A DNA stretch of 64,000 bases from Candidatus Eiseniibacteriota bacterium. Its GTDB lineage: Bacteria > Eisenbacteria > RBG-16-71-46 > CAIMUX01. The position numbers were made by a program, and so were the translations under genes. A model generated the notes under the pieces. It worked only from the letters and a program-made list of their open reading frames with translations. It ran no database searches and was not told the DNA's origin. Every line of letters begins with the position of its first letter. Positions within the stretch are counted from its first letter, which is position 1. Below are positions 3,348 through 63,305 of the stretch, in pieces. The stretch spans positions 249,258 to 313,257 of the forward strand of contig JADJQY010000005.1 in assembly GCA_016712505.1 (NCBI GenBank), read 5' to 3'.

Positions 3348-3443
3348 GGCGCGCTTGGAGGCGCAGCCCGGGGCGACCGCGAACAGCAGGGCGATCCAGA
3401 CCGCACCAGCGAGCGCCGGGAGCGCCCGGGGATCGCGACTGAA

Positions 3444-23739: not shown

Positions 23740-23915
23740 CCGCGTCCGCCCCTGGAGGGTACCGAGTTCGAGACAAACGATCGGACCGGAGGATTCCCCC
23801 GGTCCGATTCGCCGTTCGGCCTGTTGACCGCCCGGCAGGATGTGCCCCTGCCCGTCAGGCCCTATGAACCTGCCCGTCAGGCCGGATGAACCTGCCGCCC
23901 CCGGAGGGGCCGAGT

Positions 23916-26012: not shown

Positions 26013-26222
26013 CGTTTCTTCTCCTGTTCTCGCCACCCACCGGCCACGATCGAGATGAAGCGCCGGTTGTGTAGATGGCTTCTCGGCGCACCTGCGCCGC
26101 CTACTTGTGGACCTCTACAAACGGATGAGGATCGAGGCGCGGCCGGACTCCGGGCCGCGCTCGTTCGGGGGAGAGATGCCGGGCTGGGAGCGAATGCCGA
26201 TCCGCGGCATCCCGAAGACGTG

Positions 26223-26320
26223 TCCCAACGGACGTATCCCTACGGACGTGTCCCTACGGACGTGTCCCAACCGACGTGTGCCAGCAGACGCGTTACAGCA
26301 GACACGTTCCAGCCGGGTGT
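26223..26320. repeat. tandem array A: about 7 x 14 bp (TCCCTACGGACGTG consensus), decaying at the 3' end, in the pnp leader
   Basis: Direct reading: tcccaacggacgta / tccctacggacgtg / tccctacggacgtg / tcccaaccgacgtg / tgccagcagacgcg / ttacagcagacacg / ttccagccgggtgt. Confidence 0.85.
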
Positions 26321-26385
26321 TATCGAGCGGGCTGGTGCGTAGGCGTTCCGGCCTCTTCCTCAAGCGCCCACCCGCCGTCTGGTGC

Positions 26386-26491
26386 CCTGCCGACTGGCAG
26401 CCCTGCCGTCCGGTAACCTGCCGTCCGGTAACCTGCCGTCTGGTAACCTGGCGTCCGGTAACCTAGCGTCCGGCAGCCTGCCAGGTTCCAG
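26386..26491. repeat. tandem array B: about 7 x 15 bp (CCTGCCGTCCGGTAA), inverted relative to array A
   Basis: cctgccgactggcag / cctgccgtccggtaa x2 / cctgccgtctggtaa / cctggcgtccggtaa / cctagcgtccggcag / cctgccaggttccag. The reverse complement TTACCGGACGGCAGG resembles the array A/G core TACCGACGG. Confidence 0.85.
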
Positions 26492-27228: not shown

Positions 27229-28200
27229 TCAACGGATTCCTTCGATCGGCGGCAGGACGGGATCTCCGATTTTCGGCACCTTGCCCTGGAGTCGGAGGCG
27301 AGCCTCCTCGATGTCCCGGGCCACCGCCTCCTTCAGTGCCGGAAGCCCGTCGAATCGAATTTCCGCTCGAATTCGCGCTTCGAAATAGACCGGCAGAACT
27401 TTCCCCCTCAGATCGCCGCTCCAGTCGATCAAGTGGACTTCCACGGTATCGGCAGCATCATCTGTCAACGTTGGGCGACGTCCGACATTGATCGCCGACG
27501 GCACCACACCCCCCGCGATCTCGGACCAACCGGCCTAGACACCGCGGGCGGGCAGGCAGGTTCCCTCCGGAAAAACGAGATTGGCTGTCGGGACGAGCAG
27601 CTTGCCTCCCTCCCCCCGACCGAACCCCACCCGCCCCTCGAGCAGATAGGTCCGCCCCAGGACGCGGCTCGCCTCCTCCACCGCGCCACGGCGCAGCGCC
27701 TCCCGAACACGGGAGGAAGACCACGCGCACCCCGCATCGAGAACGGGCGGGAAAACCTCCGCCGTGAAATCCCGCTCGCGCCCGAGTTCACGCAGCAGAT
27801 CGATCGTTCCTTCGCGACGGTTCCCGAAGCGAAAATCCGCTCCCACCCAGAGCTCGCGCAGGTCGAGACGCGCCAGGAGCACGTCAAGGAAGGCGCGCGG
27901 CGAGAGTGCGGCCATGGCGGGGGAGAACGGGAGCAGCCAGGCGTGCGTGAAGCCGAGTTCGGCCAGGGCCCGCAGCTTTTGCTCCCGGCTGGCCAATCGG
28001 TGGACCGGAACACCGCGGGCCAGGATCTCGATCGGGTGGGGATGAAAGCTGATCGCCACTGGAGTGGCCTCGAGGGCGGCAGCGCGCATCAACACGGACT
28101 CGAGCAAGGCGCGGTGGCCGCGATGAACGCCGTCGAACACCCCGATGGTGGCAATCGCCGGGCCGGAGATGAACGGTTCGGAGGAACGAGGATCGAGCAC
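27229..28200 (-). pseudogene. ribF: bifunctional riboflavin kinase / FAD synthetase interrupted by an in-frame TAG (27535-27537)
   Basis: Two same-frame ORFs (27535..28200 and 27229..27507). Read through, the sequence is ...PARGV*AGWSEIAGGVVPSAINVGRRPTL..., where * aligns with the conserved Tyr of the riboflavin-kinase PxxGVY motif. Confidence 0.6.
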
Positions 28201-28336
28201 GGGCCGGTACCGCTCTGGATCGCCGACTAGATGACGCGTTCGAGTTCGAGGCAGAGAGACGCGTCGATCGGCCGATCAGCCGGACCCGGCAGGAGGTCCC
28301 ATCGCGCGATCGCCAACAGATCACCCGCCGGACCGA

Positions 28337-29179
28337 TCAACCGCACCCGTTGACCCGGCCGCGGGTTGCCTCGATGTGGAGCGCGTTCCGCGGAGGGACT
28401 CCGCCCTGCCGCAGCCGGCGGATCCAGGCATGGTCCACCTTGATGCCCTGCAAATGGGAGAGCGCGCGATTCATGTCGACGGCCTGCGAAAGCAACCCGT
28501 CACGAGTGCTCCCCGGGGGCGAGATGAGCCGACAGGCGTCGGCGATCTCGAATGGACCGACGTGGGTGCGGGAGAGAGTCTCGATCATCCCCACCGTGCC
28601 GACCGCCTTGGCCAGGTCCTCGGCCAGCGTCCGAATGTAGGTTCCCTTCCCGCACTCGACTTCGAAATCGACCCGCGGCAGCTCCACCTTGGTGATGGTG
28701 AAGCGGCCAATCTCCACGCGTCGCGCCTTGCGTTCCACCTCCACGCCCTTGCGCGCCAGGTCGTAGAGTCGCTGCCCGTCGATCTTGACGGCCGAGACCA
28801 TCGGAGGAATCTGCTCGATCGCTCCGATGAAGCGATCGGCCGCCGCCTGAAGCGCACCCTGATCGAGAGCCGGCACGGCCCGCTCTTCCACCACCTGTCC
28901 CCCGAGATCACCGGAGTCGGTGCGCCGCCCGAGCCTGAGCGTGCCGCGGTACCCCTTCCCGAGGTCGACCAGATGGGTGAGCAGCTTCGTGGCGCGCCCG
29001 ACGCAGACGATGAGCACGCCGTTGGCGAAGGGATCGAGACTTCCTCCGTGACCGACCTGACGGATGCCGAGGATACGACGAACCCGCGAGACCGCGTCGT
29101 GGCTGGTCCAGGGGATCTCCTTGTAGACATTGAGCACCAGGCCGGATGATTCGAGCGCGAGATCGGGATTACTCATCAT
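28337..29179 (-). CDS. truB: tRNA pseudouridine(55) synthase
   Basis: GHGGSLDPFANGVLIVCVGRATKL (catalytic Asp motif). Confidence 0.9.
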   Translation of the reverse strand: MMSNPDLALESSGLVLNVYKEIPWTSHDAVSRVRRILGIRQVGHGGSLDPFANGVLIVCVGRATKLLTHLVDLGKGYRGTLRLGRRTDSGDLGGQVVEERAVPALDQGALQAAADRFIGAIEQIPPMVSAVKIDGQRLYDLARKGVEVERKARRVEIGRFTITKVELPRVDFEVECGKGTYIRTLAEDLAKAVGTVGMIETLSRTHVGPFEIADACRLISPPGSTRDGLLSQAVDMNRALSHLQGIKVDHAWIRRLRQGGVPPRNALHIEATRGRVNGCG

Positions 29180-34626: not shown

Positions 34627-34712
34627 CCCAAAGAACCCCAGCCCAGCCCTGGCCGAAGAACCCCTGGCCGAAGAACCCCTGGCCGAAGAACCCCTGCCCG
34701 AAGAACCCCTGC
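34627..34712. repeat. tandem array C: 4-5 x 15 bp (GCCGAAGAACCCCTG) in the rimP-nusA spacer
   Basis: gccgaagaacccctg x3, then cccgaagaacccctg, then a degenerate unit. A partial copy precedes the array. Confidence 0.85.
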
Positions 34713-35674: not shown

Positions 35675-36592
35675 CTAGGGGGCGGCGAGTTCCCCCCCGT
35701 AGATCAGGTCGAGCACGACCGTCCCGACCCGCTCGAGGGTAGTCGAACTGAGCCGGTCCGGAGTGTCCTTGAGGGTGTGCCAGTTTGGATCACCCCAGCC
35801 GATGATGAGCGCGGAGGGCACCCCGCGGCGGAGCCAGGGCAGGTGATCGTCGGTAATGGCGTAGCCGACTGCCGGGTTGAACTCCGCGAAGCCGCGGCGG
35901 GCCGCCAGATCGAAGATCAGATCGGAGAGATCCGGGAAATACCGCTGCGAGTAGAGCTCGCGACCGAATTGCGCCCCCGGGGCGCCGATCATGTCCAGTA
36001 CCAGCACCCAATCGGGGAGACGACCGACCCATTCGGAGGCCAGGCGCTGGCTCCCCAGGCAGAACTCCTCGGGCTTGTCGTCCCGCCCCAGATCCTCCGC
36101 GTCGAAAAGCACCAGATCGACCCCGATCGGCGGGGGGTTGTCGCGCAGAACTCGCGCCAGGGTGAGGAGCAGCGCCGTACTCGACGCCCCGTCGTTCGCC
36201 CCCAGGACCGCCTTCGCGCGCGCCTGGGGATTCGGATCCTGGTCCGCCCAGGGGCGGGAGTCCCAGTGCGAACCGAGGAGCAGCCGCGGCCGGGCCTCGG
36301 GGCGAATCGAGATGATCAGATTGGTGCAGGCGAGCTCCCGACCATCAGCGGGCGAGATCACCTTGAAGGGGTGGGCGCGATAGGCGACGCCAAGGGAATC
36401 GAGGTGAGAACGAAAGGCCGAGAGGCAACGGGCATGCGCCGGCGTGCCCGGCACCCGGGGACCGAAGGCGCACTGTCGCCGCACCCACTTCATGGCGCTC
36501 TCCCCGGAGAGAGCCGGAGCCGCGGCCTCGACCGGGTCGGCCGACAGGAGCAGCGCCCCGAGCGCCAGCAATCGCCCGACGCCCCCCCGCAT
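35675..36592 (-). CDS. M28 family zinc peptidase (secreted aminopeptidase / glutaminyl-cyclase-like)
   Basis: Signal peptide, then LLGSHWDSRPWADQDP, GANDGASSTALLLTLA and LFDAEDLG metal-ligand motifs. Confidence 0.7.
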   Translation of the reverse strand: MRGGVGRLLALGALLLSADPVEAAAPALSGESAMKWVRRQCAFGPRVPGTPAHARCLSAFRSHLDSLGVAYRAHPFKVISPADGRELACTNLIISIRPEARPRLLLGSHWDSRPWADQDPNPQARAKAVLGANDGASSTALLLTLARVLRDNPPPIGVDLVLFDAEDLGRDDKPEEFCLGSQRLASEWVGRLPDWVLVLDMIGAPGAQFGRELYSQRYFPDLSDLIFDLAARRGFAEFNPAVGYAITDDHLPWLRRGVPSALIIGWGDPNWHTLKDTPDRLSSTTLERVGTVVLDLIYGGELAAP

Positions 36593-39500
36593 CAGAAGGT
36601 GAAGGCGGCCGAGACGGAGATGCTGACCAGGCGTGTCGTGTTCCCCTCGTTCTTGTTGTCGGTGTTCTGCCCCACGCTCAGCGATGCCTTCCCGTTGATG
36701 TTGTCGGTGAACTGATAGTTGGCGTCGGTGGTGACCTTCAGACTGGAACGATCATCCCCGATCACGTCCTGCCCCGCCCCGAAGCGCGAGGTGGTCGATT
36801 TGTTCTGCGACCAGTCGATCGCCCCTGAGAGGTCGAGACGGGTTTGCACCACCTTTTTCTGGTTCGTGACCGGCACCACCACCGTCTTGGTCAAGCGGAT
36901 CGTCTTCTTGACCGTGAGCAGAACCTTGCGCGAGATCGACTCGTTCAGGTTCCCCGGTGGCGGATTGTAGCTCTGGGTGCGGGTGACCCGCGAGTCGCTG
37001 CTCAAGGAGGCGGTCATCTCGTTGTTCAGCGTCAGGTTCAGGTTCAGCAGGGGCGAAAACGCGGTGCTCCTCTGCTCCGTGTCCCGGGTACGCCCCTGGG
37101 AAGCGGTCGTCTGGAGCTCTCGCGAGAAGTTGGTCGTCGCCTGGATGCTCTTTACCCGCGACTCCAGGCCGAGGACCTTGACCAGCGCCTTTGGCGCCGT
37201 GCCCCAGTTCACGTTGAGATCGGGCCACTTCGTGGTGACCCGCGTCGTCGGCTGCTGCGCGTTCTGCCGTTGGTTCGATTCGGTCCGGTTTGCGCTCGTC
37301 CCCACGCTCACATTCTGCGGCATCCGGAGCGAGGTGGTCAGGGTGAAGGTCTTCCCTTCGCTCTCGGTCGACTGGGCCAGCCCTACCGGGCGAGTGTCTC
37401 CGCCCGGGTTGTCACTCAGCCCGAGCTGATAGAGCATCGAGGGAGTGCCGCGCTGGCTGCTGCGACTATTGTCGTGGGTGAGCGAGTACTGCAGCTGCAT
37501 CGGTTCGAGTTTGAACCCGCGCGGGCCGGAGCCGGCCGACGAGTTTCCCGACTTCTCTCCCTTCCCCCCCCGACCCAGTTTCGCCAGCTCGCCCAACGCG
37601 AGGCGAGCGGAGAAGCTGGTCGAGTTCCCCGAGCGGAACGAGTTGGTCCGCTCCTGGCGGTCCTGCTGCAGGTTGGTGTACTGCAGGAAGTCGATCCCCG
37701 AGCGCCCGCTCCAGGTGACCTTGGGCGCCACCGAGGTCTTCAAGATCGGGATGTCGTAGTTGGTGCTCAGATCCTGTTGTCGCGCGGTCTCACGACCGAG
37801 GTTCAGCCCGAGCAGGCGTGGGGCCCCTTCTCGGAGCTGCAGATCCCGGTTCGAGCTGATCCGGTAGTTCAAGAACTGCAACGGTCGCATCCCCGCTCCC
37901 AGGTTGAGCGCGGCGCTATTGCGGTTGGAGGTCGGGGCGAGGCGGAAGGGCGCGGCGAGGTCGCTACGGACGTAGCGACGGCTCCGGTTCCGCTGCCCAT
38001 TCAGGGTGGCGCTGACCGAGTTGGGCAGCAACTGCGCCCGCCACCCCTTGCCAAGGTTGAATGCGGCAAGGTTGTCCAGCGCCATTGCCCAGGAGACGCC
38101 CCCGGTGGCATTGGTCGTGGTGTCGCGCTGGGTTGGGGTGAGCGAGGTCGCCTTTCGATGCGAGCCGTTCAGCCTGAACGGGGCCAGGCCGTAGCGCACC
38201 CATGGGTTCTCCGATGACTCCTTCTCGATGCTGACCTCGAGCCGTCGCTCGTTGGTCTCGCTGATGTCGCGATCGGTGGCTCGATCGAGCACCAGGTCGC
38301 TGTTGGTCTGGAACTTCGGGACGCGACGGTCCCGCGCGGCCGACCAGCGGACCGGCAGGCGGATCCCGAGCGGCGAGAGGAATCGATCGACATTGACGGT
38401 GCTGGCCAGGTTCACCGCCGTGGTGGTGGTCCCGGAGCCGCGCTCCTTTCCGATCGAGAGGAAGTCGGCGTTGGTCCGGGTGAGGTTGCCGCTGAAGCTG
38501 GCCACGTCCGAGAGATTGGTCTGGACGCTCATGCGCGTGGCGTACCCCCGGTCCTTCTTGACCTGGGTGAGGCGCAGCTCGTTGATCCAGACGTTGCCCC
38601 GCCCGAGAGTCGACTGGCCCCGGTTCGCGACGAAGAAAGCGATCCGCTGGATGCTGGTCAGGCTCGGATTCCCCTTTCGCGAGATGACCGCACCGTTGGG
38701 CAGGCTCCGACTGGCGATCTTGGTCACGGAGTCCGGCACGTCGAGCTGCAGCTGGGACATCTCTGCGAAGTCCATCCGAACCAGGTACCAGTCGCTCAAG
38801 ATCGGAATCCGGTACTCGTAGTAGTTGGTGGTGTTGCTGTTGGCATCGCGACAGAGCCGGATGGTCGCCTGGAGATTCGCGTCCCCCAGTTCCGACCGTT
38901 TGCGCAGGTAGAACTCCATGTTCTCGTAGAGCGTGTAGTCCTGCCGGGTGGGATAGGTGCGGTAGATCGACGCCTTGTGCGCCGGGGCGAAGTTCGACAG
39001 CTCGAGGGTGATCGACTGCTCGCGCTCGGTCACGTTGTTCTGTTTCCCCGGCTTGAACGGTGGATCGTAGACCGCGGCATCGTCCTTGTTGTTCAGCACG
39101 CTGACGAAGAAGTCCTCCCCCGGGCCGATCTGCTCCGGCGGGAGCGGCCGGTCGGCCAGGTTGGCCAGCGGCCCCTCGTACCAGCGGTTGCCGATGATCT
39201 CCAGCCCGCCGATCTGGAGCAGGGTCGAGTCGGCCAAGCTGTCGACCCAGACCCGGGCGTGGAGGATCTTCTCCCAGCTCGGCTCGATTCCGGGTCGGCT
39301 TTCGATCCGCACCAGGGAGTCACTGTCGAGCGGGATGCGGACCCGGCGCCAGCCGTTGTCCGATCGGATGGCGAAGTTGAGATCGTTCCGTCCTTCGTAG
39401 TCGCGGAAGACGTCGGTTTCCCAGAGCGTGGAGTCGCCGAGATCGATCGACACGGTGAAGTAGCTGCTCAGGGTGGAAAGTGAGCTGTCGTCGTTCAGGT

Positions 39501-39840
39501 CCTCGCTGTCCATCTCCTGATTGCCTTCGGTGCCGTTGACCTGAGCGTACTTGCGCGGACTGGTCTCGCTCACGTCGTCATCGAACTTGTAGTCGTCGCG
39601 CGGATCGTCGCCCGATCGACCTGATTGGATCCGGTCGAGGCCCACGTCCTCGTCTCCCTGGGTTCCCTGGTCGAGGCGGCCGTCGTTGTTCTGATCCTCG
39701 GTGTCGAGCTTGCCGTTCGGAGTGACGATCGTTCGCTCGCTCGGTGGTCGGCGGAGATCATTGGGATCACCGCGGTACCAGATGGCGTCCTCGTTCACCG
39801 AGCCAAGGTCGATGTGGAGGCGGCCGCGCCGCTTCGCCAC
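36592..39840 (-). CDS. SprA-like giant cell-surface / outer-membrane protein, C-terminal fragment (frame 0)
   Basis: 1082-aa ORF rich in Asn/Thr/Ser beta-strand-like repeats, ending in ...SISVSAAFTF (beta-barrel C-terminal Phe). Contiguous with two upstream frames. Confidence 0.5.
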   Translation of the reverse strand: MAKRRGRLHIDLGSVNEDAIWYRGDPNDLRRPPSERTIVTPNGKLDTEDQNNDGRLDQGTQGDEDVGLDRIQSGRSGDDPRDDYKFDDDVSETSPRKYAQVNGTEGNQEMDSEDLNDDSSLSTLSSYFTVSIDLGDSTLWETDVFRDYEGRNDLNFAIRSDNGWRRVRIPLDSDSLVRIESRPGIEPSWEKILHARVWVDSLADSTLLQIGGLEIIGNRWYEGPLANLADRPLPPEQIGPGEDFFVSVLNNKDDAAVYDPPFKPGKQNNVTEREQSITLELSNFAPAHKASIYRTYPTRQDYTLYENMEFYLRKRSELGDANLQATIRLCRDANSNTTNYYEYRIPILSDWYLVRMDFAEMSQLQLDVPDSVTKIASRSLPNGAVISRKGNPSLTSIQRIAFFVANRGQSTLGRGNVWINELRLTQVKKDRGYATRMSVQTNLSDVASFSGNLTRTNADFLSIGKERGSGTTTTAVNLASTVNVDRFLSPLGIRLPVRWSAARDRRVPKFQTNSDLVLDRATDRDISETNERRLEVSIEKESSENPWVRYGLAPFRLNGSHRKATSLTPTQRDTTTNATGGVSWAMALDNLAAFNLGKGWRAQLLPNSVSATLNGQRNRSRRYVRSDLAAPFRLAPTSNRNSAALNLGAGMRPLQFLNYRISSNRDLQLREGAPRLLGLNLGRETARQQDLSTNYDIPILKTSVAPKVTWSGRSGIDFLQYTNLQQDRQERTNSFRSGNSTSFSARLALGELAKLGRGGKGEKSGNSSAGSGPRGFKLEPMQLQYSLTHDNSRSSQRGTPSMLYQLGLSDNPGGDTRPVGLAQSTESEGKTFTLTTSLRMPQNVSVGTSANRTESNQRQNAQQPTTRVTTKWPDLNVNWGTAPKALVKVLGLESRVKSIQATTNFSRELQTTASQGRTRDTEQRSTAFSPLLNLNLTLNNEMTASLSSDSRVTRTQSYNPPPGNLNESISRKVLLTVKKTIRLTKTVVVPVTNQKKVVQTRLDLSGAIDWSQNKSTTSRFGAGQDVIGDDRSSLKVTTDANYQFTDNINGKASLSVGQNTDNKNEGNTTRLVSISVSAAFTF

Positions 39841-42590
39841 CCCTGGCGCCAGGCGTCGAAGCGCACGAAGTCGTTGATCCAGATGTCGAGGAACTGGGCC
39901 CGCGACAGATCCGCCCCGCGGGTGGAGATCGACTGCACCACCCCGGACCAGGAACGCTCCCGCTCCCCATCCGTCTCCCCCGCCGGGAACACCTTCATCT
40001 CGAGCACCGTGCGATTGTCATCCCCTTCGGTCTGCTCGAGGGTCGGCTGCAGGTCCCCCTCCCGCACCTTGGCCCGAGGGGAGTACCAGTAGAGTTCCCC
40101 TTTGCGCACGGAGGCCTCCTGCTCGCCCAGATCGTCGAGCAGCGGGGCGGGAATCGAGGCCGGTCGCCAGGCGCGGCGGTTGAGGTTGAGCGACTGAATG
40201 TCCTTCACCCCGTCGAAGTCGTCGACGTACAGCTTGTCCCGGGTGTTCGGATTGGGAAACGACATGCCGAGACCGGCGTCGAGGTCGAAGCGGGACGGTG
40301 CGCGAGCCGTGACCCCGGGCAGGGCGTTGGCCAGTCGGGTCAGCATCCAGGCTTCGGTCTTGTACGAACCGGTGAACTCACCGACCAAGGTGTGGGCCGG
40401 CTCCTCCCCCAGGCGCGGTCGTTTTCCCTGCAGACCGGGCACTCCCCCCTTGCTCTCGTAAAGCCAGGCGGAGGAGAAGTTGAGCTTGCTGTCCTGCGGC
40501 CGGTAGGCTCCGGCCATCCCCGCGAGCGTCTTCTGATTTCCCCCTCCGAACGGGATGAATGAATAGGTGACCTGGATGTTCTCGCTCTGCTGCACGTTCG
40601 CGGCAGCCAGGATCTCGATCTCCCCGAGGTCGTAGTCGATGGTGTAGTCGCGGTCGCGCACCAACAGTCGCCCGCCGGCCCGCACCGACTCGCTCCCCTC
40701 GAGGATGTTGTAGGCATTGAGCTGGATGTTGCTCACCGGACTCCGGTAGGTGACCTCGATGTAGTACTGGCTGTCTCCGGGCTGCGGCGTACCCGACCAG
40801 TCGTAGACCCGCGGGGCGCGGAGGGCGGGGTCGATCGGGATGGTGTTCTCCGCGGTGCGTTGCTTGAGGGAGGTGCCGTCCGGACGGAAGCGGTAGAAGA
40901 GAAACTGGCCGCAGGTCGCGGGCTCGAGTCCAAGGTCGGCCGAGTCGGGATCGAACGGCCGGAGGTCGGGGAAGTAGAGCAGTCCGCTGCCCAGATCGAC
41001 CTGCCCGGGGTCGACCTCCTCGTCGGTTCCGGCCGTCGTCTGCCCCTCGGAGTTCAGGATGCCGAGGTCGAGCCCGGTCCGCTGGAGAAACGTGACGTTC
41101 GAGATCTGGTCCGGCTCGTTGTCGGTGCCCAGGGTCCGCTTCAGCCGGACGCGAAGCTGGAGCGAGCCGGCTTCGATCGATCGAGCCTGCAGGTCGTAGA
41201 CATTCTTGAGCTCGAGGTTCCGGACCGAGGCCCACGGACCCTCGGTCAGGTCGTTGCTCACATTGAGCGCGCTACCCGGACGGATCATCTTCAGGCTCAG
41301 CGTGTCGCCACTGGCGATGAACCCCACCCGCTCGATCGGTGTGGTGGTGCGCACCAGGTTTCCCGTCCCGTCCACCCCCATGGCCACGCCGCGGTAAGCC
41401 ACGGCCAGGACGTCGTCCTCGTCGAGCGGACGACTGAGCACCAGCCAGGGATTGCCCCGGTTGCGGTCGCGATTGATGACGTAGTCCTCGTCGACCCCCA
41501 TCTTGAGCAGGTGGAAGTTCCCCACTGCCACCGAGTCGACATCGGTGCCCACCGGCGGGCGAGGATCGCGACCGGTCACCGTCACCTTGCTCGCCCGGGC
41601 GTCGAGCTGGACGTCGTTGTTGCGCACCTTGTCGTCCACGAAGACGTAGAGCGAGTCATCGTCCACGTCCCACGGGCAGCCGTTCGGGTCGCGCAGGAAG
41701 AAGAACTTGCCCCGGATGAAGTCGGTGTCGTCGATCCGGATGGTGGTCACCTCGGCCGATCGTTCGATCGACTTCGAGTCGTTCTTTCCCTCCTGTTTGG
41801 AGAGAATCATGTTCACGTCGACCGCGGCCAGCTTGGCCAGCGCGCTGATGCCGAAGAGACCCTCGGCGCGGCCGTTGTAGGTCACGTACTGCGTTCCCGG
41901 GAGCGAGAGGTTGGTGTTCCCGAGGTTCACCTCCTGCACGATCTCGTCCTCGTAGCCGTCGTACTTGATCTTGATCCGGTTGGAGAGCGGCGTCGTGGCC
42001 TGACTCGCTTGATCGACGTCGACCTGCACCTTGTCGCCGATCGTACCGGTGAGGTTGAGGTTCAGTTCCTGCATCATGTCGAGCTGGGGGAACTTCGATT
42101 GCCCGCGACCGAACTCGGTCTCCCGCGCATTCGGACGCCACTGGCTGGTCCCGCCGAAGGTGATCCGCTCGCTGCCGCGCACCAGGAGGTTCGGCTCCCC
42201 CTTGCCGAAGATCGACTGGAGCTGGGACGGGACCTCGAAGGGGACGGTCAGCTTCACCATCCCCTTGTTCCCCTTGGCCACGTTGGCCCGCCCCTTCTCC
42301 GCGGTCTTCAGCTGGGTCAACCACTCCCGGCGGAAGTTCCGCAGCCCGAGGCGACGGAGGTACTCGGCGCGGGTCAGGCGCAGCCGCGGTCCAATCGGAG
42401 TCTGGCGATGCAGCTGCTGCACCTCGACCAGGGGGAATCGAGCTGGGCCGAGACCTGGAGCTGCAACGGATCGAAGGCATCGAGATGCGGTTCGGTCGCC
42501 TGGAGGAAGCGGAAGCCGAGGCTGTCGAGTCGCGCCTGTTCCGCCGGCTTCAAGAACCCCCGCGCGCGCACCGTCTCGCGAGCCGACCAC
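39795..42590 (-). CDS. SprA-like giant protein, middle fragment (different frame)
   Basis: 931-aa ORF (TFGGTSQWRPNARETEFGRGQSKFPQLDMMQELNLNLTG...). Overlaps the downstream fragment by 46 nt at a CCCC run. Confidence 0.5.
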   Translation of the reverse strand: MVGSRDGARAGVLEAGGTGATRQPRLPLPPGDRTASRCLRSVAAPGLGPARFPLVEVQQLHRQTPIGPRLRLTRAEYLRRLGLRNFRREWLTQLKTAEKGRANVAKGNKGMVKLTVPFEVPSQLQSIFGKGEPNLLVRGSERITFGGTSQWRPNARETEFGRGQSKFPQLDMMQELNLNLTGTIGDKVQVDVDQASQATTPLSNRIKIKYDGYEDEIVQEVNLGNTNLSLPGTQYVTYNGRAEGLFGISALAKLAAVDVNMILSKQEGKNDSKSIERSAEVTTIRIDDTDFIRGKFFFLRDPNGCPWDVDDDSLYVFVDDKVRNNDVQLDARASKVTVTGRDPRPPVGTDVDSVAVGNFHLLKMGVDEDYVINRDRNRGNPWLVLSRPLDEDDVLAVAYRGVAMGVDGTGNLVRTTTPIERVGFIASGDTLSLKMIRPGSALNVSNDLTEGPWASVRNLELKNVYDLQARSIEAGSLQLRVRLKRTLGTDNEPDQISNVTFLQRTGLDLGILNSEGQTTAGTDEEVDPGQVDLGSGLLYFPDLRPFDPDSADLGLEPATCGQFLFYRFRPDGTSLKQRTAENTIPIDPALRAPRVYDWSGTPQPGDSQYYIEVTYRSPVSNIQLNAYNILEGSESVRAGGRLLVRDRDYTIDYDLGEIEILAAANVQQSENIQVTYSFIPFGGGNQKTLAGMAGAYRPQDSKLNFSSAWLYESKGGVPGLQGKRPRLGEEPAHTLVGEFTGSYKTEAWMLTRLANALPGVTARAPSRFDLDAGLGMSFPNPNTRDKLYVDDFDGVKDIQSLNLNRRAWRPASIPAPLLDDLGEQEASVRKGELYWYSPRAKVREGDLQPTLEQTEGDDNRTVLEMKVFPAGETDGERERSWSGVVQSISTRGADLSRAQFLDIWINDFVRFDAWRQGWRSGAAASTSTLAR

Positions 42591-43198
42591 CGATTGACCA
42601 CGCTGTGGAGCAGGGCATCTTCGCTCGGGAACATCGAGACCGGACGGGTCCAGAGACCGACGCCGGGGGGAATCTCGATTTCACGGCTCGGCATCGGGCG
42701 CGCCTCGACCGGAGTGCCGGTGAGTTCGGGCGGCGGGGTCGAGAAGGGATCCACCGGCGGGGGTGGGGTGGCGCGGCCCTCCCCTTCGGCGGCGGCCGAG
42801 TCGACGAGCGCGCTGCCCCGGGCGGAGTCAGGGAGGGCGGTCAGGGACGAATCGCCCAGAACCGCGCTCGAGTCCAAGCCCGCCGCCTGGAGCACCTCCT
42901 GCAGGCTCGAATCGGGCCGTTCCGGGGTCGGTTCGAGGCTGTCTCCCGCCTCCCGTTGTGCGGCCACAGAGGGCAAGCTCGCCCCCGAATCCAGGACATC
43001 CGCGGGAGCATTGCCGATAGTCGAGTCGACGGGCGGGGGCAAGGGACGCGGCCGCGGGGTGGCGTTGACCGGATCCTCGATCGCTCCGGGCGCCCCGGCC
43101 TGGGACCGGGGACCGAAGAGGATCAAGGTCAGGGCAACAAGCAGCACCCATCCTACCGCCGGTCGGCGGGAGCCAGGCTCGATCTGTGCTGTAGGACG
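42374..43198 (-). CDS. SprA-like giant protein, N-terminal fragment with signal peptide (third frame)
   Basis: Candidate TTG start near 43198, then RRPAVGWVLLVALTLILFGPRSQAGA (signal peptide). The frame switches to the middle fragment near a GGGGG run around 42432-42436. Confidence 0.4.
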   Translation of the reverse strand, partial: RPTAQIEPGSRRPAVGWVLLVALTLILFGPRSQAGAPGAIEDPVNATPRPRPLPPPVDSTIGNAPADVLDSGASLPSVAAQREAGDSLEPTPERPDSSLQEVLQAAGLDSSAVLGDSSLTALPDSARGSALVDSAAAEGEGRATPPPPVDPFSTPPPELTGTPVEARPMPSREIEIPPGVGLWTRPVSMFPSEDALLHSVVNRWSARETVRARGFLKPAEQARLDSLGFRFLQATEPHLDAFDPLQLQVSAQLDSPWSRCSSCIARLRLDRGCA

Positions 43199-43285: not shown

Positions 43286-43360
43286 CTCTCCCGGTCCGGG
43301 CTCTCCCGGTCCGGGCTCTCCCGGCCCGGGCCCTCCCGGTCCAAACCCTCGTGGTCGGGA
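43286..43360. repeat. tandem array D: about 5 x 15 bp (CTCTCCCGGTCCGGG) in the sprA/lptF divergent spacer
   Basis: ctctcccggtccggg x2 / ctctcccggcccggg / ccctcccggtccaaa / ccctcgtggtcggga. Confidence 0.85.
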
Positions 43361-43597: not shown

Positions 43598-44971
43598 ATG
43601 ATCTTGCAGCGCTACATCGTCCGATCACTGGTCGGGCCCTTTCTGCTCGGATTCGGGATCGTGACGTTTCTCCTCACGATGGACATGCTGCTCGATCTCC
43701 TCGATCTCATCATCGGGAAGGGCATTCCGGTCTGGACCGTCGTGCGCCTGTTCTTCCTGGCCCTGGGCTGGATGGTCGCCCTCTCCGTCCCCTGCGGCGT
43801 CCTCGTGGCCGTCCTCATGACCTTTGGCCGGATGAGCCAGGACAACGAGATCGTCGCCCTCCGGGCGAGCGGCGTCCACCTCTTCCGGATCCTGGCCCCC
43901 GCGCTGGGCACGTCCGCGATTGTCGCCATCGCCCTCGCCCTCTTCAACAACTACGTCCTGCCGGAATCGAACTATGCCTTCTCCCGCCTCCGGGACGAGA
44001 TGATGCGAAAGCGACCGACGGCGGAGATCCGCGAGGGGGTCCTCATGGACGACTTTCGCGGCTACCACCTCTTCATCAGCCGTCTGAACGACCGGACCGG
44101 GGAGATGCAGGACGTCTTGATTCTCGACGGCACCTCCTCCCCCACCTCCCCGCGCACCATCCTGGCCAAGAACGGGATCCTGCACTTCCGTCCGGAGGAG
44201 AACGCACTGACCCTCGAACTGTTCGACGGCCAGATCCACCAGGCCGATCCGAACGCCGCCGAGGGGACCTACCGATGGCTCGACTTCGGCACGCACATCC
44301 TCCGGATCCAGGAGGTGGGAGATCTCTGGCGCGAGGGAGTGCAGAAGCGACGGGGCCAGCGGGAGATGTCGGTCGAGGAGATGAAGGCCGAGATCCGGAA
44401 GCTCCAGGCGGATCGCGACAACACCATGAAGTACATCACCGGCGACCTGGAGAAACTCTCCCTGCCCGACCTCGAAACGCTCGACCTGCGTGACCCGGGT
44501 TCGGCGGTCCAGGGGGCGGTGGGAAGCCTCTGGCGAAAGGCACTCAAGCAGGCGAGGCCGCCCGCGCCGAGCAACTTCTCGGTGGACGAGCAACGGGTGG
44601 TGGAGGCGATCCGCTCGCGCCAGGGAGAGGTTCGCTCGGTGGAACGCCGGATCAGCGAGTTCCGGGTCGAGATCCACAAGAAGTTCTCCATCCCGGTGGC
44701 CTGTGTGGTCTTCGTGCTGGTGGGAGCGCCGCTCGGGATCCGCGCCCGCCGGGGCGGACTGGCGGTCGGCTTCCTGAGTTCCGCCTTCTTCGTCTTCTAC
44801 TGGCTCTGCCTGATCGGGGGCGAGCAGCTCGCCGATCGTCGGCTCCTCCCTCCCTGGGTTGCCATGTGGCTGGCCAACGTCGTCCTGGGGACCCTCGGAA
44901 TCTTCCTCACGCTGTCGGTCATCCGCTCCGGCGACCCCGGGCGGCCGCGACCGCAAAAGGCCGCGCCGTGA
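43598..44971 (+). CDS. lptF: LPS export ABC transporter permease (YjgP/YjgQ family)
   Basis: MILQRYIVRSLVGPFLLGFGIVTFLL, 6 transmembrane segments with a large periplasmic insert. ATG at 43598. Confidence 0.75.
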   Translation: MILQRYIVRSLVGPFLLGFGIVTFLLTMDMLLDLLDLIIGKGIPVWTVVRLFFLALGWMVALSVPCGVLVAVLMTFGRMSQDNEIVALRASGVHLFRILAPALGTSAIVAIALALFNNYVLPESNYAFSRLRDEMMRKRPTAEIREGVLMDDFRGYHLFISRLNDRTGEMQDVLILDGTSSPTSPRTILAKNGILHFRPEENALTLELFDGQIHQADPNAAEGTYRWLDFGTHILRIQEVGDLWREGVQKRRGQREMSVEEMKAEIRKLQADRDNTMKYITGDLEKLSLPDLETLDLRDPGSAVQGAVGSLWRKALKQARPPAPSNFSVDEQRVVEAIRSRQGEVRSVERRISEFRVEIHKKFSIPVACVVFVLVGAPLGIRARRGGLAVGFLSSAFFVFYWLCLIGGEQLADRRLLPPWVAMWLANVVLGTLGIFLTLSVIRSGDPGRPRPQKAAP

Positions 44972-44999
44972 CGCTTGGCAGGGGAGAAACGAAGGGACG

Positions 45000-46079
45000 A
45001 TGAGGATCCTCGATCGCTACCTGGTGCGGGAGTACCTCAACTACTGCTTCCTCGGCATCCTCACCTTCGTCGGCCTGTTCATCGTGGTCGACCTGTTCGA
45101 GAAGCTGGATGTCTTCGTCGACCACAAGGCGGGGGCCGGGCTGGTCGCGCGTTACTACCTCTACGGGGCGGGGACGATCGTCACCCAGGTGCTCCCGATC
45201 GCGCTTCTGCTCGGTTCCATCCTGAGCCTCAGCCAGCTCCGGAAATACAACGAACTGGCCGCGATGCAAGGCTCGGGACAAAGCCCGTGGCGCCTCGCCC
45301 GCCCTCTGCTCCTCGCCGGACTCGCCTTCTCCATCGGGCAGTACGCGCTCAATGAGGGGCTGGGACCCAGGATGTACGAAGGGCAGAAGCGGATCCTGAA
45401 CGAGGAGATCAAGCGTCTCTCGGGCACTGACTCACAGAGCCGTTCCGACGTGCGGTTCGTCGGGGCCGGCGGTCGCTTCTTCATCGCGCAGTTTTTCGAT
45501 GCCCGGCGCGAGACCTTGCGCGGCGTCTCGGTCCAGTACCTCGCTCCCCCCCGTCTCACCGCGCGGATCGACGCCGAACGCGCCAGCTGGGTCGACGGCA
45601 CCTGGCGGTTCGAGAATGGGCACCTCAGGAGTTTCTCCGACGCCGGTTCACACTCGATCCCGTTTCGGGCCTACGCCAGTTCGGAGATCGACGAGACCCC
45701 GCGCGACTTCGCCCGGCAGAGCGTCGACCCCTTCCACCTGGGCATGCGGGATCTGTGGCGCTACGCCGAACGGATCCGCGGCTCCGGCGGCGAGACGCAG
45801 AAGTACCTGACCAACTTCCATCTGCGCGCGTCGTTCCCCCTGGCGGGGCTGATCATGACGCTCCTGGGCGCGGCGCTCTCGCTCCGCGTGGTGCGAGGGG
45901 GCAACATCGCCGTCGGCCTGGGGCTCTCGGTGTCGGTCGGCTTCGCCTTCTTCGCCTTCGTGCGCATCGGTCAGGCGCTGGGATACAACGGCACGATCCC
46001 GCCGATGCTCGCAGCCTGGCTCGGAAATCTGGTCTTCACCGCGATCGGGTTCTTGCTCTTCTGGAAAGTGAGCCGCTAG
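45000..46079 (+). CDS. lptG: LPS export ABC transporter permease (YjgP/YjgQ family)
   Basis: [37 protein letters not shown]. Confidence 0.75.
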
Positions 46080-47567: not shown

Positions 47568-48785
47568 TCAGAAGCGGACGATGCCGGTCGGCCCTCCGCC
47601 GGCCGCGCGTCGCCCATCGGGCGCCGGCGACTCCTCGGTGGGCGCGGCTTCCTCCGTCGTCTCCCCGTCCTCGGCCTGCTTCTTCCCTTCGAACGCGTCC
47701 CAGGATGTGTCGCTCGAGGACTGGATGCCCTTGACGCGCAGTTCGAACTCGGTCGAGTTGGTCGCGCTCTTCAGCGCCTGTTCCAGGGTGATGAGCCCGA
47801 GCCGATACAGCCGCATGAGCGACTGATCGAAGGTCTGCATTCCATACTGCGTGGCCCCATCCTGGATGGCCGATCTTATCAGAAGCGTTTTGTCGTGGCT
47901 AAGCAGGTACTCCTGGATCGTGGGAGTGTTGATCAGGACCTCGGCCGCGGGAACGCGCCCCTGGCCGGTCGAGCGCGGGATCAGGCGCAGCGAGACGACC
48001 GCCTGCAAGGTGCTCGCCAGGAGGAAGCGGACCTCGTCGTGCTGGTGGGGCGGATAGAACGAGATGATGCGGTTCACGGTCTGCGCGGCATCGATGGTGT
48101 GCAAGGTGGAAAAGACAAGGTGACCGGTGTCGGCCGCCATGAGCGCGATCGACATCGTCTCCCGATCGCGGATCTCACCGAGGAGAATCACGTCCGGGTC
48201 CTGGCGCAGAATGTGTCGGAGCGCCGCGGAGTAGGTCTCGGTGTCGAGTCCGACTTCGCGCTGGGTGATGAACGCCTTGTCATCCCGGTGCAGGAACTCG
48301 ATCGGATCTTCGACCGTGATGATCGAGCGCGGCTCGCGTCGATTGATGCAATCGATCATCGACGCCAGCGTGGTCGACTTTCCGCTTCCGACCGTTCCCG
48401 TGACCAGGATGAGCCCACGCCGTTTGAGCGCGATCTGCTCCACGATCGGCGGGAGGTTCAGGTCCTCGAACCCCGGCACGCCCAGCGGGACGTGTCGGAT
48501 GGCGAGCGAGATGGTGCCGCGTTGGAAGTAGATGTTGCAGCGGAAACGGGCGAACCCGGGCAGGCCGAAGGCGAAGTCGATCTACCGCTCGGAGAGGAAC
48601 TTCTCCTTCTGGGTGGGACTCAGCAGCTGATCGAGCACCTCATCCAGCTCGCGCGCGGTGGCCGGGGCGTCGTTGAGTTGGAGCAAGGCCCCATCCACGC
48701 GGAGCTGCGGGCGGGCGCCCAGCTTGATGTGGAGGTCGGAGGCGCCACGCTCGATCATCTGGTCCAGAACGTTGCGGAAATCCAT
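47568..48785 (-). pseudogene. pilT: type IV pilus twitching-motility ATPase PilT interrupted by an in-frame TAG (48582-48584)
   Basis: N-terminal ORF MDFRNVLDQMIERGASDLHIKLG...FLSER stops at TAG. The same frame continues IDFAFGLPGFARFRCN...VTGTVGSGKSTTL (Walker A). The TAG aligns with a conserved Glu/Thr codon. Confidence 0.6.
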
Positions 48786-54311: not shown

Positions 54312-54818
54312 ATGTTCAAGAAGGAGAGCCTGCTCCTCGCCCTGGCGATGACCGCTGGCCTTCTGACCACGGCCGGCTGCTACACCCTGATCCGGCACCC
54401 GGTGGCGGACGTCTCCGACTTCCGGGAGGACGTTCTGACCGATGCGTCGCACGAGACGGGGGCCTGCTTCACCTGCCACGAGACCGGCGTTGTCTACACC
54501 CCGATCGGCAGCTCGCCCACCTGGGGCCCGTGGTATCCCCCTCCATGGTGGATGGAGCCGAATCCGCCTTCCGGCCCCGGCTCTTCCCCATCGGGACCGG
54601 ACGATCAGGTGCGGCATGGCTGGGATCGCGGCCCGGGAGCACCCCGCACCGAACCGGGAACCGCCCCCGGAGTCACCCCCACGCCTTCAGATCCGAGCGG
54701 AACCCCTGCCGCTCCCGTCGATCCCGTGCGGGCCGAGCCTGACCGGGTGAAGAACGACGACAAGGAAAAGGAAAAGCAAAAGGACAAGGACAAGGACCGA
54801 CGCGGCTGGGGTCGCTGA
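54312..54818 (+). CDS. small lipoprotein with a single CxxCH motif, Trp/Pro-rich core and Lys/Asp/Glu-rich tail
   Basis: MFKKESLLLALAMTAGLLTTAGC (lipobox), GACFTCHETG (CxxCH), WGPWYPPPWWMEP, KNDDKEKEKQKDKDKD C-terminus. Confidence 0.6.
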   Translation: MFKKESLLLALAMTAGLLTTAGCYTLIRHPVADVSDFREDVLTDASHETGACFTCHETGVVYTPIGSSPTWGPWYPPPWWMEPNPPSGPGSSPSGPDDQVRHGWDRGPGAPRTEPGTAPGVTPTPSDPSGTPAAPVDPVRAEPDRVKNDDKEKEKQKDKDKDRRGWGR

Positions 54819-54852
54819 CCCAAGCTTCTCGGTCCGGAGAAGGAGCCTGGTC

Positions 54853-56148
54853 GTGCCGAAGCTTCGCGGGATCGCGAATGGCCTCGTTTGGGTCCTGGTC
54901 ACACTCGCCACCCAAAGCGTCGAATCGCGAGCGACGATCCCCCCGGATGTGCCTCTGGTCAACCGACCCGGGGTCGGCACGCGAGCGCTCGGCATGGGCG
55001 GGGCATCGGTCGGAGTTTCCGAGGACTATCACGCCCTGGCGATCAATCCGGCGGGGCTGGCCCAGCTCCGCCGGGTCGAGTTCGGCCTGGAGTTCAAGCG
55101 CAAGTCGATCACCTCGGATGCGACCTACCTGGGCGAAACCCATTCCGTGCCGCTGGACAAGACGCGCATCCAGTCGATCGGCTTCGCCTATCCCTTCCCA
55201 ACCTACCGAGGCGCGCTGGTCGTCGGGATGTCGTATCAGCGGGTGGCCGACCTCGATCAGGACTATTACCGCGCCGGCCGAGGCGGGGAGATCCAGAGCG
55301 AGGTGGAGACGATCTTCGAAGAGGGTTCGGTGGGCGCCTATCAGGCGGGATTCGCGGTGGCCGCGAGTCCCAAATTGAATCTGGGTGCCACGGCGACGTT
55401 CTACTCCGGGGGCTCGGATCGCGAGCGATCGTTCACCTATCGGTCCACGAACGGCATCGACCGCGAGCGGACCAACACCACGCAGGAAATGGACATCCAC
55501 GCGATCAGCGGATCCCTGGGCGCCCTGGTGCAACTGCGGCCCGATCTGCGGCTGGGGCTGAGCCTCCATCTCCCCGAGAGCTTCACCCTCGAGGGGTCGG
55601 GAGACGATGACATCGTGCGGGTCGGGACCGAGCCGCCCGATACCCTGGACATCCTGGAGCCCTACACGTTCTCCGACGAACTCACGCTGCCGGCGCGATT
55701 CTCCGCGGGTCTGGCCTGGACCAGGAACGGTTGGTTGGCCAGCGCCGATGCGGCGATCGCCGACTGGAAACAGATCGACTACTACGGCCCGCTCCGCACC
55801 GAGGAGCGTGAGTACGTCTACCGCACCGAGGTCGACCTTCGGCTCGGCGTGGAATACACGTTCCCGAACACGCCGCTGCGGCTGCGCGCCGGATACGCCT
55901 CGCAGCCGGTGGCCTACCGCCCGATCGCCACCGACGTGTTCCGCGGGGAGTTCGCCTTCGCCGACTTCGAACAGGACCGACGCACCTGGGCGTTCGGCGG
56001 GAGCGTGCTGCTGGAGGAGTCGATGATGCTGGAGGCCGCCTATGTGACCGGCGGCTACGAGCGCCGCGGACGGAGCCCTCGGGGCGTGGAGACGATCGAG
56101 AAGCTCGATCAGAACGACCTGTTGGTCGGGGTCACGTTTCGGCTCTGA
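54853..56148 (+). CDS. FadL/OMPP1-like outer-membrane beta-barrel protein (PorV-like)
   Basis: Signal peptide, then RALGMGGASVGVSEDYHALAINPAGLA (N-terminal hatch NPA motif of FadL-family barrels). Alternating beta-strand pattern to the C-terminus. Confidence 0.5.
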   Translation: MPKLRGIANGLVWVLVTLATQSVESRATIPPDVPLVNRPGVGTRALGMGGASVGVSEDYHALAINPAGLAQLRRVEFGLEFKRKSITSDATYLGETHSVPLDKTRIQSIGFAYPFPTYRGALVVGMSYQRVADLDQDYYRAGRGGEIQSEVETIFEEGSVGAYQAGFAVAASPKLNLGATATFYSGGSDRERSFTYRSTNGIDRERTNTTQEMDIHAISGSLGALVQLRPDLRLGLSLHLPESFTLEGSGDDDIVRVGTEPPDTLDILEPYTFSDELTLPARFSAGLAWTRNGWLASADAAIADWKQIDYYGPLRTEEREYVYRTEVDLRLGVEYTFPNTPLRLRAGYASQPVAYRPIATDVFRGEFAFADFEQDRRTWAFGGSVLLEESMMLEAAYVTGGYERRGRSPRGVETIEKLDQNDLLVGVTFRL

Positions 56149-56163
56149 GTCGGGTCAACTCTG

Positions 56164-56270
56164 GGGCAGGGCCAGTCCTGAGGTCGGGCCAGTCCTGAGG
56201 TCGGGCCAGTCCTGAGGTCGGGCCAGTTCTGAGGTCGAGTCAGCTCTGCGGTTGGGTCAGATCTGCGGCC
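56164..56270. repeat. tandem array E: about 6 x 17 bp (GGGCCAGTCCTGAGGTC) between the convergent OMP and rnc genes
   Basis: gggccagtcctgaggtc x3 / gggccagttctgaggtc / gagtcagctctgcggtt / gggtcagatctgcggcc. Confidence 0.85.
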
Positions 56271-59082: not shown

Positions 59083-59195
59083 TGTTCGATCGGGGGCCCG
59101 TTCAATCGGGGGCCCGTTCAATCGGGGGCCCGTTCGATCGGGGGCCCGTTCGATCGGGGGCCTGTTCGATCCGGGCCCTATTCGATCAGGGCTCC
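59083..59195. repeat. tandem array F: about 7 x 16 bp (GTTCGATCGGGGGCCC) in the fabG-acpP spacer
   Basis: gttcgatcgggggccc / gttcaatcgggggccc x2 / gttcgatcgggggccc x2 / gttcgatccgggccct / attcgatcagggctcct. Each unit contains CGATCG and GGGCCC palindromes. Confidence 0.85.
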
Positions 59196-63047: not shown

Positions 63048-63230
63048 CCGGCTCACGTCTGGCACCGGACGGCACGCAGCGACCGGTCAGCGACCGGGCC
63101 GGGGGGCTCAGAAAGGATCCGCATCGTGTGGATTCGCGCCTCCGCGAAAGGGACTCCGGGCGGTCGACTCGTCCGGGGTCTCGCCATGGGTTCGCCTGCC
63201 GGAGAGACCCGGACCATCGGGGACGGGGTC

Positions 63231-63305
63231 CCTACGGACGGTGTCCCTACCGACGGTTTCCCTACCGACGGTTTCAGTGCCGACGGGGTCACTGAAACCG
63301 AGGAC
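63231..63305. repeat. tandem array G: about 5 x 15 bp (TCCCTACGGACGGTG), same family as array A, in the rpmF-plsX spacer
   Basis: tccctacggacggtg / tccctaccgacggtt x2 / tcagtgccgacgggg / tcactgaaaccgagg. Confidence 0.85.

Follow-up and report, generated by a model that had tools for sequence, protein, structure and literature searches.

Two one-base gaps divide a T9SS sprA gene in a Candidatus Eisenbacteria MAG and are probably residual assembly errors

Introduction

Three contiguous open reading frames (ORFs) on the minus strand of a Candidatus Eisenbacteria contig together resemble one very large gene, but as assembled no uninterrupted frame runs through it. This raises the question whether the organism carries a broken gene, whether the gene is switched or recoded, or whether the interruptions are confined to the assembly. 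A sequence-only reading of the window (the whole stretch of 64,000 nucleotides that was analysed) had proposed a SprA-like gene split at two short homopolymers, and had left indel error, pseudogene formation and phase variation side by side as possible causes. T9SS, to which the SprA translocon belongs, is found in the FCB superphylum (PMC12398890, PMC9170169). A literature search for a link between Eisenbacteria and T9SS found no paper.

Results

The three ORFs are colinear pieces of a single SprA/Sov gene (Table 1), as had been proposed for a gene of about 2200 aa lying in three minus-strand frames. They align with residues 1-239, 239-1103 and 1103-2185 of the intact 2185-aa protein of a sibling MAG (GCA_020851285.1) at 99.9-100% identity, with residues 40-312, 315-1179 and 1180-2259 of a more distant SprA (L002), and with residues 77-202, 185-1049 and 1056-1221 of a further homologue (P0001). 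Intact single-ORF orthologues that are colinear with the window gene include, besides the sibling protein, those of L002 (2259 aa), L094 (2134 aa) and about 79 more relatives. When one base is added to the run at 42431-35 and one to that at 39840-43, the window sequence gives a single continuous ORF of 2185 aa, which differs from the sibling protein (MCC7143146.1) at 2 residues. The assignment to the T9SS translocon also holds. The TIGR04189 model scored 313.8 bits on the middle ORF, 161.8 bits on the C-terminal ORF and 493.1 bits on the full-length sibling protein (P0028), which was scored in place of the repaired window protein and differs from it at only those 2 residues; the equivalog cut-off is 200. 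In the GenBank record, which bears IPK72_ locus tags, the three pieces, MBK8231468-70, are labelled as three "hypothetical proteins".

Table 1. Features of the sprA locus and of other lesions in the window (positions are those of the window).
Feature	Position	Strand	Remarks
sprA/sov, whole locus	36592-43147	-	T9SS outer-membrane translocon; 2185-aa product after addition of one base at each of two runs
N-terminal sprA fragment, MBK8231470.1	42374-43147	-	257 aa annotated; sibling residues 1-239 at 100% identity, frame -1
Middle sprA ORF, MBK8231469.1	39795-42590	-	931 aa in ORF listing, 875 aa annotated; homologous part 39840-42434
C-terminal sprA ORF, MBK8231468.1	36592-39840	-	1082 aa; Pfam SprA_N match; end ...SVSAAFTF*
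Frameshift site 1	42431-42435		GGGGG on plus strand (CCCCC in gene); sibling 6, GAT TCC CCC CTG (D S P L); fused to CCAGG
Frameshift site 2	39840-39843		CCCC on plus strand (GGGG in gene); sibling and ~88%-identical species 5, CAG GGG GTG (Q G V); fused to CCTGG
"M28 peptidase", downstream on same strand	35675-36592	-	annotated start 36571; most like bacterial glutaminyl cyclases (6qql_A, E=2e-49)
lptF (43598-44971) and lptG (45000-46079)	43598-46079	+	divergent from sprA; synteny in 74/75 relatives
truB lesion	28362-28364	-	GGG vs sibling GGGG; last ~45 codons frameshifted
ribF premature stop	27535-27537	-	TAT to TAG, window-specific; product 221 aa instead of 323 aa
PilT/PilU-family ATPase, premature stop	48582-48584	-	GAG to TAG at codon 68 of 405, window-specific
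Intergenic C-run contraction	23745-23748		C4 vs sibling C6 (2 nt); fused to CCTGG; just upstream of M16 peptidase start

The N-terminal fragment begins with a hydrophobic leader, MLLVALTLILFGPRSQA, which is followed by a low-complexity region rich in Pro, Ser and Asp, and ends in a tail of 21 out-of-frame codons and a stop. Position 43198, previously taken as the end of this fragment, is CGT and no start codon; the annotation of both MAGs starts sprA at the GTG at 43147, and a TTG at 43210 is an alternative start which would add a positively charged n-region. Compared with SprA/Sov of Flavobacterium johnsoniae and Porphyromonas gingivalis (TIGR04189; PF14349, SprA_N), the gene is alike in its model score (493 vs 200), its length of about 2200 aa, the N-terminal hydrophobic leader, the C-terminal aromatic residue (...AAFTF), its single copy and a host within the FCB superphylum. 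It differs in that this host is a Candidatus Eisenbacteria member and not one of the Bacteroidota, in that its N-terminal ~240 aa are of low complexity and poorly conserved, and in its three-frame state as assembled.

The genomic context proposed for the gene stood in part. The genes lptF and lptG do adjoin sprA, whereas the candidate FadL-like outer-membrane protein (54751-56148) lies 12 kb away and scored 31 bits against PorV_fam (cut-off 90) and 78 against BamG (cut-off 250), and the supposed M28 peptidase is closest to glutaminyl cyclases. Within this clade a glutaminyl-cyclase-like gene is conserved as the partner of sprA (49 of 57 relatives). As the analysis shows, a bona fide SprA exists in Eisenbacteria and in neighbouring FCB lineages, and its gene lies in a conserved lptG-lptF <> sprA-glutaminyl-cyclase arrangement. 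Co-occurrence of the T9SS core genes (porK/L/M/N, porV, porU, sprE/porW) was viewed within the 64 kb only.

Alignment with the 99.86%-identical sibling contig placed the two frame changes to the base. The CCCC run lies exactly where it had been reported, while the coordinates given before for the GGGGG run, 42432-42436, are off by one. The 64 kb contain 720 G/C runs of at least 4 nt, one in every 89 nt or so, and 192 of at least 5 nt, and because such runs are so frequent a homopolymer at a break is by itself weak evidence. All three sprA segments are free of stop codons in their correct frames and exhibit no sign of decay. A scan of GTDB species representatives yielded 80 relatives. Frame breaks occur in the sprA of 2 of 81 relatives, and about 79 of the 81 read straight through both sites. 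The relatives L001-L009 (L002 among them) have non-repetitive codons at both positions; L001 was unusable as a reference for the C-terminus, as its contig continues into an aminotransferase after contig position 12334. The first homology search returned nothing closer than 53% identity and missed the same-species proteins because their 90%-identity cluster is represented by a C-terminal fragment. When JGI metagenome contigs were scanned with the middle protein, a single 41%-identical locus came up and no contig of the same species.

The sibling MAG has an intact sprA, in which each of the two runs is longer by one base. Its contig (L083, L086, L092) could be compared with window positions 6655-56079 at 99.66-99.86% identity. 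Over these 49 kb all four small indels are homopolymer contractions, and all are in the window (42431, G5 vs G6; 39840, C4 vs C5; 28362, G3 vs G4; 23748, C4 vs C6). Two fall in sprA, one shifts the frame of truB and one is intergenic. Three of the four runs are fused to CCWGG, a property of 5-7% of such G/C runs (P about 0.001, post hoc). Of the 35 genes compared, the window has four in a broken state (sprA, truB, ribF and the pilT-like gene), whereas the sibling has all of them unbroken. The SNPs present a different picture. There are 17 synonymous, 11 non-synonymous and 12 intergenic changes, an enrichment at synonymous and intergenic positions, and polarisation with an outgroup assigned 6 to the window and 7 to the sibling. 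The outgroup consisted of Logan contigs (L094-L097) from another species of ~88% identity and is not same-strain evidence. Because of this enrichment and the even polarity, the substitutions look like real strain divergence and the assembly is not generally noisy in this respect. Within sprA itself, 6 synonymous and 2 non-synonymous differences were found.

The broken TruB, RibF and SprA products are confined to this one assembly, and full-length TruB and PilT are also present in independent Logan assemblies. The product of ribF, riboflavin kinase/FAD synthetase, is an essential enzyme in model bacteria. An altered genetic code with TAG as a sense codon was considered for the two premature stops and rejected, as both TAGs are private to the window and replace GAG and TAT. 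In Pfam checks the overlapping neighbour ORFs appeared as normal separate genes; these checks missed the lesions in truB, ribF and pilT, which were later exposed by the sibling comparison. A codon-usage frame scan alone was too noisy for the detection of frameshifts, and the region 1407-4457, which it had marked as suspect, simply contains three normal genes that share a frame. No match came from Rfam or tRNA scans of the window.

Discussion

The two one-base gaps in sprA are probably residual consensus or assembly errors and not part of the organism's DNA, which makes the finding an ordinary one, most likely due to uncorrected long-read errors. According to this explanation, the MAG, presumably built from low-coverage Nanopore and Illumina reads, would contain one ordinary sprA/sov gene for a T9SS translocon of about 2200 aa. 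Two single-base deletions in short G/C homopolymers would have been introduced by base calling or polishing, and the cell would translate the gene into a single protein of 2185 aa. Consensus errors in R9.4 Nanopore data fall mainly into two classes, those at CCWGG (Dcm) sites and those in homopolymer length (Wick et al., 2019, PMC6591954), and homopolymer indels are expected to persist and to shift reading frames in bins of low coverage (Sereika et al., 2022, PMC9262707). The window resembles such data in its deletions of 1-2 bases in G/C homopolymers, three of four at CCAGG/CCTGG, and in its frameshifted gene calls on a long contig of a probably low-coverage MAG; it is unlike them in the shortness of the affected runs (3-6 nt). 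In accession range (MBK82...), contig size (359 kb) and taxon the window agrees with a set of activated-sludge Nanopore MAGs, whose Eisenbacteria members were covered only 8-10x by Illumina and 10-14x by Nanopore reads and were polished once with Illumina data (PMC8012365, Supplementary Data 3); on the strength of accession range and contig size, Nanopore is the presumed platform of the window. Two indels in one 6.6-kb gene are unsurprising given four indels in 49 kb, and the lesions are not specific for sprA, since truB, ribF and the pilT-like gene are broken as well. Some observations count against the error reading, namely the substitutions, which look like true divergence between strains, the two nonsense changes in ribF and the pilT-like gene, which are not classic homopolymer errors, the placement of both non-synonymous sprA changes on the window branch, and the sprA breaks in 2 of 81 relatives, according to which breaks, real or artefactual, recur in this long gene.

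Of the causes left open by the sequence-only reading, indel error is the one favoured by the evidence, and a genuine recent pseudogene is possible though unlikely. In that case the deletions in sprA and the lesions in pilT, ribF and truB would be real and the T9SS translocon non-functional in this lineage, for example because pressure from phages or predators favoured the loss of surface machinery, or because selection was relaxed in a subpopulation. A second hit in the same gene would be expected once the first had removed selection, and both non-synonymous changes in sprA lie on the window branch, which would fit relaxed constraint. The nonsense substitution in the pilT-like gene, a second envelope or motility gene, is no typical homopolymer error, and the SNP spectrum speaks for two truly different strains. 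However, a pseudogene requires 4 of 35 genes, ribF and truB included, to have been broken on a branch of ~0.05% divergence, against no gene on the sibling branch, and extended over the genome it implies hundreds of pseudogenes in the absence of any other sign of decay. Moreover, all four indels are homopolymer contractions, three of them at CCWGG, a pattern characteristic of base callers, and the sprA segments themselves show neither stops nor decay. A more specific version appears distinctly unlikely: a wastewater strain would have lost both the T9SS translocon, through the two deletions, and the PilT retraction ATPase, through the nonsense change, with the deletions at G/C runs fused to CCWGG pointing to an indel hotspot linked to methylation or repair and to strain-level shedding of surface machinery.

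Slipped-strand phase variation, in which the two G/C tracts would act as on/off contingency switches of sprA, is very improbable. As in the phase-variable surface genes of Neisseria, Haemophilus, Campylobacter and Bacteroides, the interruptions lie at G/C runs whose length takes two values in genomes that are nearly identical. Known G/C contingency tracts, however, comprise roughly 7 nt or more, far above the 4-5 nt of the window (5-6 nt in the ON allele), and runs of at least 4 nt occur by the hundreds in the window anyway. Two OFF lesions are present in one gene at the same time, and both would need to revert. The tracts are also not conserved, L002 and other relatives having non-repetitive codons there, and contractions of the same type hit the housekeeping gene truB and an intergenic site. 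Hardly credible, finally, is programmed recoding, in which ribosomes would shift into the -1 frame twice, on C CCC C and on G GGG, or transcription would slip there; the same applies to a function of the three ORFs as separate proteins. It is true that at both sites the P-site tRNA (Pro-CCC, Gly-GGG) would find a perfect match after moving back by one base. Yet the 99.86%-identical sibling, the ~88%-identical species and about 79 of 81 more distant relatives have no frameshift, and judged from these sequences the lack of conservation effectively refutes recoding. In addition, neither sprA site contains a canonical X XXY YYZ heptamer, and the 84 nt downstream of each fold no better than shuffled sequences (z +0.35 and +1.23). 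Against separate proteins, the middle and C-terminal ORFs lack a signal peptide of their own, and SprA forms a single 36-strand barrel which cannot assemble from separately exported pieces.

With residual assembly error as the probable cause, the sprA case is mainly a quality flag for a contig on which TruB and RibF are truncated and PilT is broken too. The gene calls of this MAG would mislead anyone who took them to mean that T9SS, twitching motility or flavin metabolism is missing. If the lesions were real, they would illustrate, on a modest scale, how surface machinery can be lost at the level of strains. The error also affects homology searches, as the C-terminal fragment, being the representative of its 90%-identity cluster, hid the intact protein from the search with the middle piece.

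Results

The sequence-only reading of this locus had described a SprA-like gene lying in three frames, which is borne out by profile matches and homologues. TIGR04189 (NCBIfam, T9SS outer membrane translocon Sov/SprA) matches the middle ORF with 313.8 bits and the C-terminal ORF with 161.8 bits, the latter also containing the Pfam SprA_N match, and homologues from MAGs of Eisenbacteria, Zixibacteria and Krumholzibacteriia align colinearly through all three frames. Because of these matches and this colinearity, the three minus-strand ORFs, which adjoin or overlap one another, are pieces of one gene, a genuine SprA orthologue. An exact-sequence look-up traced the proteins of the window to a GenBank MAG labelled 'Candidatus Eisenbacteria bacterium' (locus tags IPK72_, 359,497-bp contig).

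Inspection of the junctions showed that one additional base in each of the two runs at the sprA sites (see table) would bring the frames together at precisely the spacing of P0001, a SprA homologue from the JGI contig L001. The first ~1221 residues of P0001 (1449 aa) are SprA, and the same frame runs on into class-III aminotransferase-like sequence (L001 12334-13021, JGI Ga0619461_05877090); L001 is probably a chimeric metagenome contig. The window has a G+C content of 64-71% and contains 720 G/C runs of at least 4 nt, about one per 89 nt, 192 of them at least 5 nt long. A homopolymer at a break, taken alone, hardly means anything, and exact placement therefore needed a closer relative.

Scanning GTDB with one genome for each species yielded 80 loci, mostly from Candidatus Eisenbacteria, which together with L001 gave 81. 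SprA matches are single-frame in all but two of these, with an ORF of 2000-2500 aa where the contig permits. The two exceptions, L020 (~9928-10078) and L071 (~7862-7960), have one frame break each, and both come from low-coverage SPAdes co-assembly MAGs. In the closest of the 80 scanned loci, L002 (70% amino acid identity; 22 kb colinear with the window), both junctions are read through. Still closer is the 2185-aa protein MCC7143146.1 from the sibling MAG GCA_020851285.1, which belongs to the 90%-identity cluster of MBK8231468.1. This C-terminal fragment is itself the representative of the cluster, and a search with the middle fragment could therefore not reach the intact protein of the same species.

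The sibling contig JADZDC010000176.1 was aligned to positions 6655-56079 as three overlapping pieces. Across 35002-56079 the identity is 99.862%; 27 positions are mismatched, and there are just two gaps, both of one base, one in each of the C/G runs that the sequence-only reading had named as frame-change points. Insertion of both bases into the window opens a 2185-aa ORF from a GTG at 43147 to 36592, whose product matches the sibling protein at all residues except 261 and 1439. The TIGR04189 search proposed for the fused product was made with this sibling protein, which scores 493.1 bits against a cut-off of 200. Strain differences within sprA are six synonymous and two non-synonymous changes, the correct frames contain no stop codons, and there is no decay within the gene.

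Features of the split sprA gene and lesions of the window relative to the sibling MAG
Feature	Position	Strand	Window vs sibling	Product or effect
sprA, C-terminal ORF	36592-39840	minus		1082 aa, ending ...SVSAAFTF and stop; MBK8231468.1 (1082 aa), hypothetical protein
sprA, middle ORF	39795-42590	minus		931 aa; annotated as 875 aa, MBK8231469.1, hypothetical protein
sprA, N-terminal ORF	stop at 42374	minus		annotated as 257 aa, MBK8231470.1, hypothetical protein
sprA frameshift site 1	42431-42435		GGGGG (G5) vs GGGGGG (G6)	frame change
sprA frameshift site 2	39840-39843		CCCC (C4) vs CCCCC (C5)	frame change
truB (28230-29179)	28362-28364	minus	G3 vs G4	frameshift; last ~45 residues replaced by 7-residue out-of-frame tail
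intergenic C run	23745-23748		C4 vs C6	just upstream of M16 peptidase start
ribF (27232-28200)	27535-27537	minus	TAG vs TAT	221 vs 323 aa
PilT/PilU-family type IV pilus ATPase gene (47568-48785)	48582-48584	minus	TAG vs GAG	premature in-frame stop at codon 68

Counting the two in sprA, only four small indels separate the two MAGs in 49.4 kb, and every one of them is a homopolymer contraction on the side of the window, affecting unrelated genes, housekeeping ones included. Of the 35 genes compared, four carry a break in the window, and all are unbroken in the sibling. TruB is full-length (316-317 aa) in the sibling and in seven Logan contigs, and full-length PilT was likewise found in independent Logan assemblies. 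The stop in ribF removes the riboflavin kinase half, the remnant being annotated as hypothetical protein IPK72_12930. Codon 68 of the pilT-like gene is GAG (Glu) in both the sibling and L002, and apart from this stop the gene shares 99.75% identity with an intact protein of 405 aa. Truncated products of SprA, TruB and RibF are confined to this one assembly, and at six of seven testable SNP sites the sibling allele is the one seen in short contigs of independent origin (JGI 3300012956, Logan SRR25822718).

Discussion

The interpretation of the split is decided by the comparison with the sibling beyond sprA. The missing bases would be uncorrected long-read homopolymer deletions; these are the probable cause of the split, which most likely has no biological basis. 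Three of the four contractions (23745-23748, 39840-39843 and 42431-42435) are in G/C runs that directly join a CCAGG or CCTGG motif, a context shared by only 5-7% of comparable runs in this region (P ~0.001, post hoc). This suggests a context-specific base-calling problem or, possibly, Dcm-like methylation. Consensus errors of R9.4 Nanopore assemblies are dominated by two classes, CCWGG (Dcm) motifs and homopolymer lengths (PMC6591954), and low-coverage bins can be expected to retain homopolymer indels that shift reading frames (PMC9262707). Judging from accession range, contig size and taxon, the MAG appears to belong to the activated-sludge Nanopore collection of PMC8012365, which was assembled with CANU and polished with Racon, twice with medaka and once more with Racon using Illumina reads; its Eisenbacteria MAGs had a coverage of 8-10x Illumina and 10-14x Nanopore. 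That two of four indels per 49 kb fall into one 6.6-kb gene is unremarkable. A private SNP at 44517 breaks up a G8 run, which likewise follows CCAGG.

Of the three explanations offered by the sequence-only reading, indel sequencing error is thus favoured, given the one-sided contractions that also reach truB. A real, recent pseudogene is unlikely, although several observations fit it. Substitutions between both MAGs (17 synonymous, 11 non-synonymous, 2 nonsense and 12 intergenic) resemble true strain divergence, and a ~88%-identical Logan outgroup species (L094/L095), whose own SprA is intact (2134 aa), assigns them evenly to the two branches, six being window-derived and seven sibling-derived; general noise in substitutions is therefore not a property of this assembly. 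Moreover, the nonsense changes in ribF and the pilT-like gene are not classic homopolymer errors, and both non-synonymous sprA changes lie on the window branch. Yet a pseudogene would imply ~10% broken genes, ribF included, on a branch of ~0.05% divergence, which is implausible, and stop-free correct frames do not look like decay. Phase variation or recoding, even taken together, are very improbable: the tracts, of 4-5 nt here and 5-6 nt where the gene is intact, are short, one gene would have two of them, truB and intergenic DNA bear the same type of lesion, and the frameshifts are unconserved even at 99.86% identity. The tracts are also missing in relatives; at the corresponding positions L002 reads TCC AAT CGC and AGG CAC GAG. 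Compared with shuffled sequence, the 84 nt downstream of either sprA site show no better folding (z +0.35 and +1.23).

T9SS has been described in the FCB superphylum; a paper linking it to Eisenbacteria was not found in the literature searched. Among the neighbours previously taken as T9SS context, lptF and lptG were confirmed, a divergent lptF preceding sprA in 74 of 75 loci. The supposed M28 peptidase (35675-36592), directly downstream of sprA, is closest in solved structures to bacterial glutaminyl cyclases (6qql_A, E=2e-49; 7cje_A and 6qro_A, E about 1e-49). In 49 of 57 loci sprA is followed by an M28-family gene in the same orientation, and a conserved pairing of sprA with a glutaminyl cyclase is suggestive in view of pyroglutamate formation on secreted proteins of Bacteroidota. 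The FadL/Toluene_X-like outer-membrane protein (54751-56148) stays below the cut-offs of both PorV/PorQ (31 bits; cut-off 90) and BamG (78 bits; cut-off 250), the BamG score being the higher one. It adds no support for a T9SS neighbourhood.

Intergenic tandem arrays with 14-17-nt units in 2-7 copies occur at 26216-26290, 26370-26482, 34647-34711, 43286-43342, 56144-56265, 59084-59191 and 63222-63290, one of them in the divergent sprA/lptF promoter region. The two larger differences between window and sibling are copy-number differences in such intergenic 15-nt arrays, amounting to 15 nt and 25 nt.
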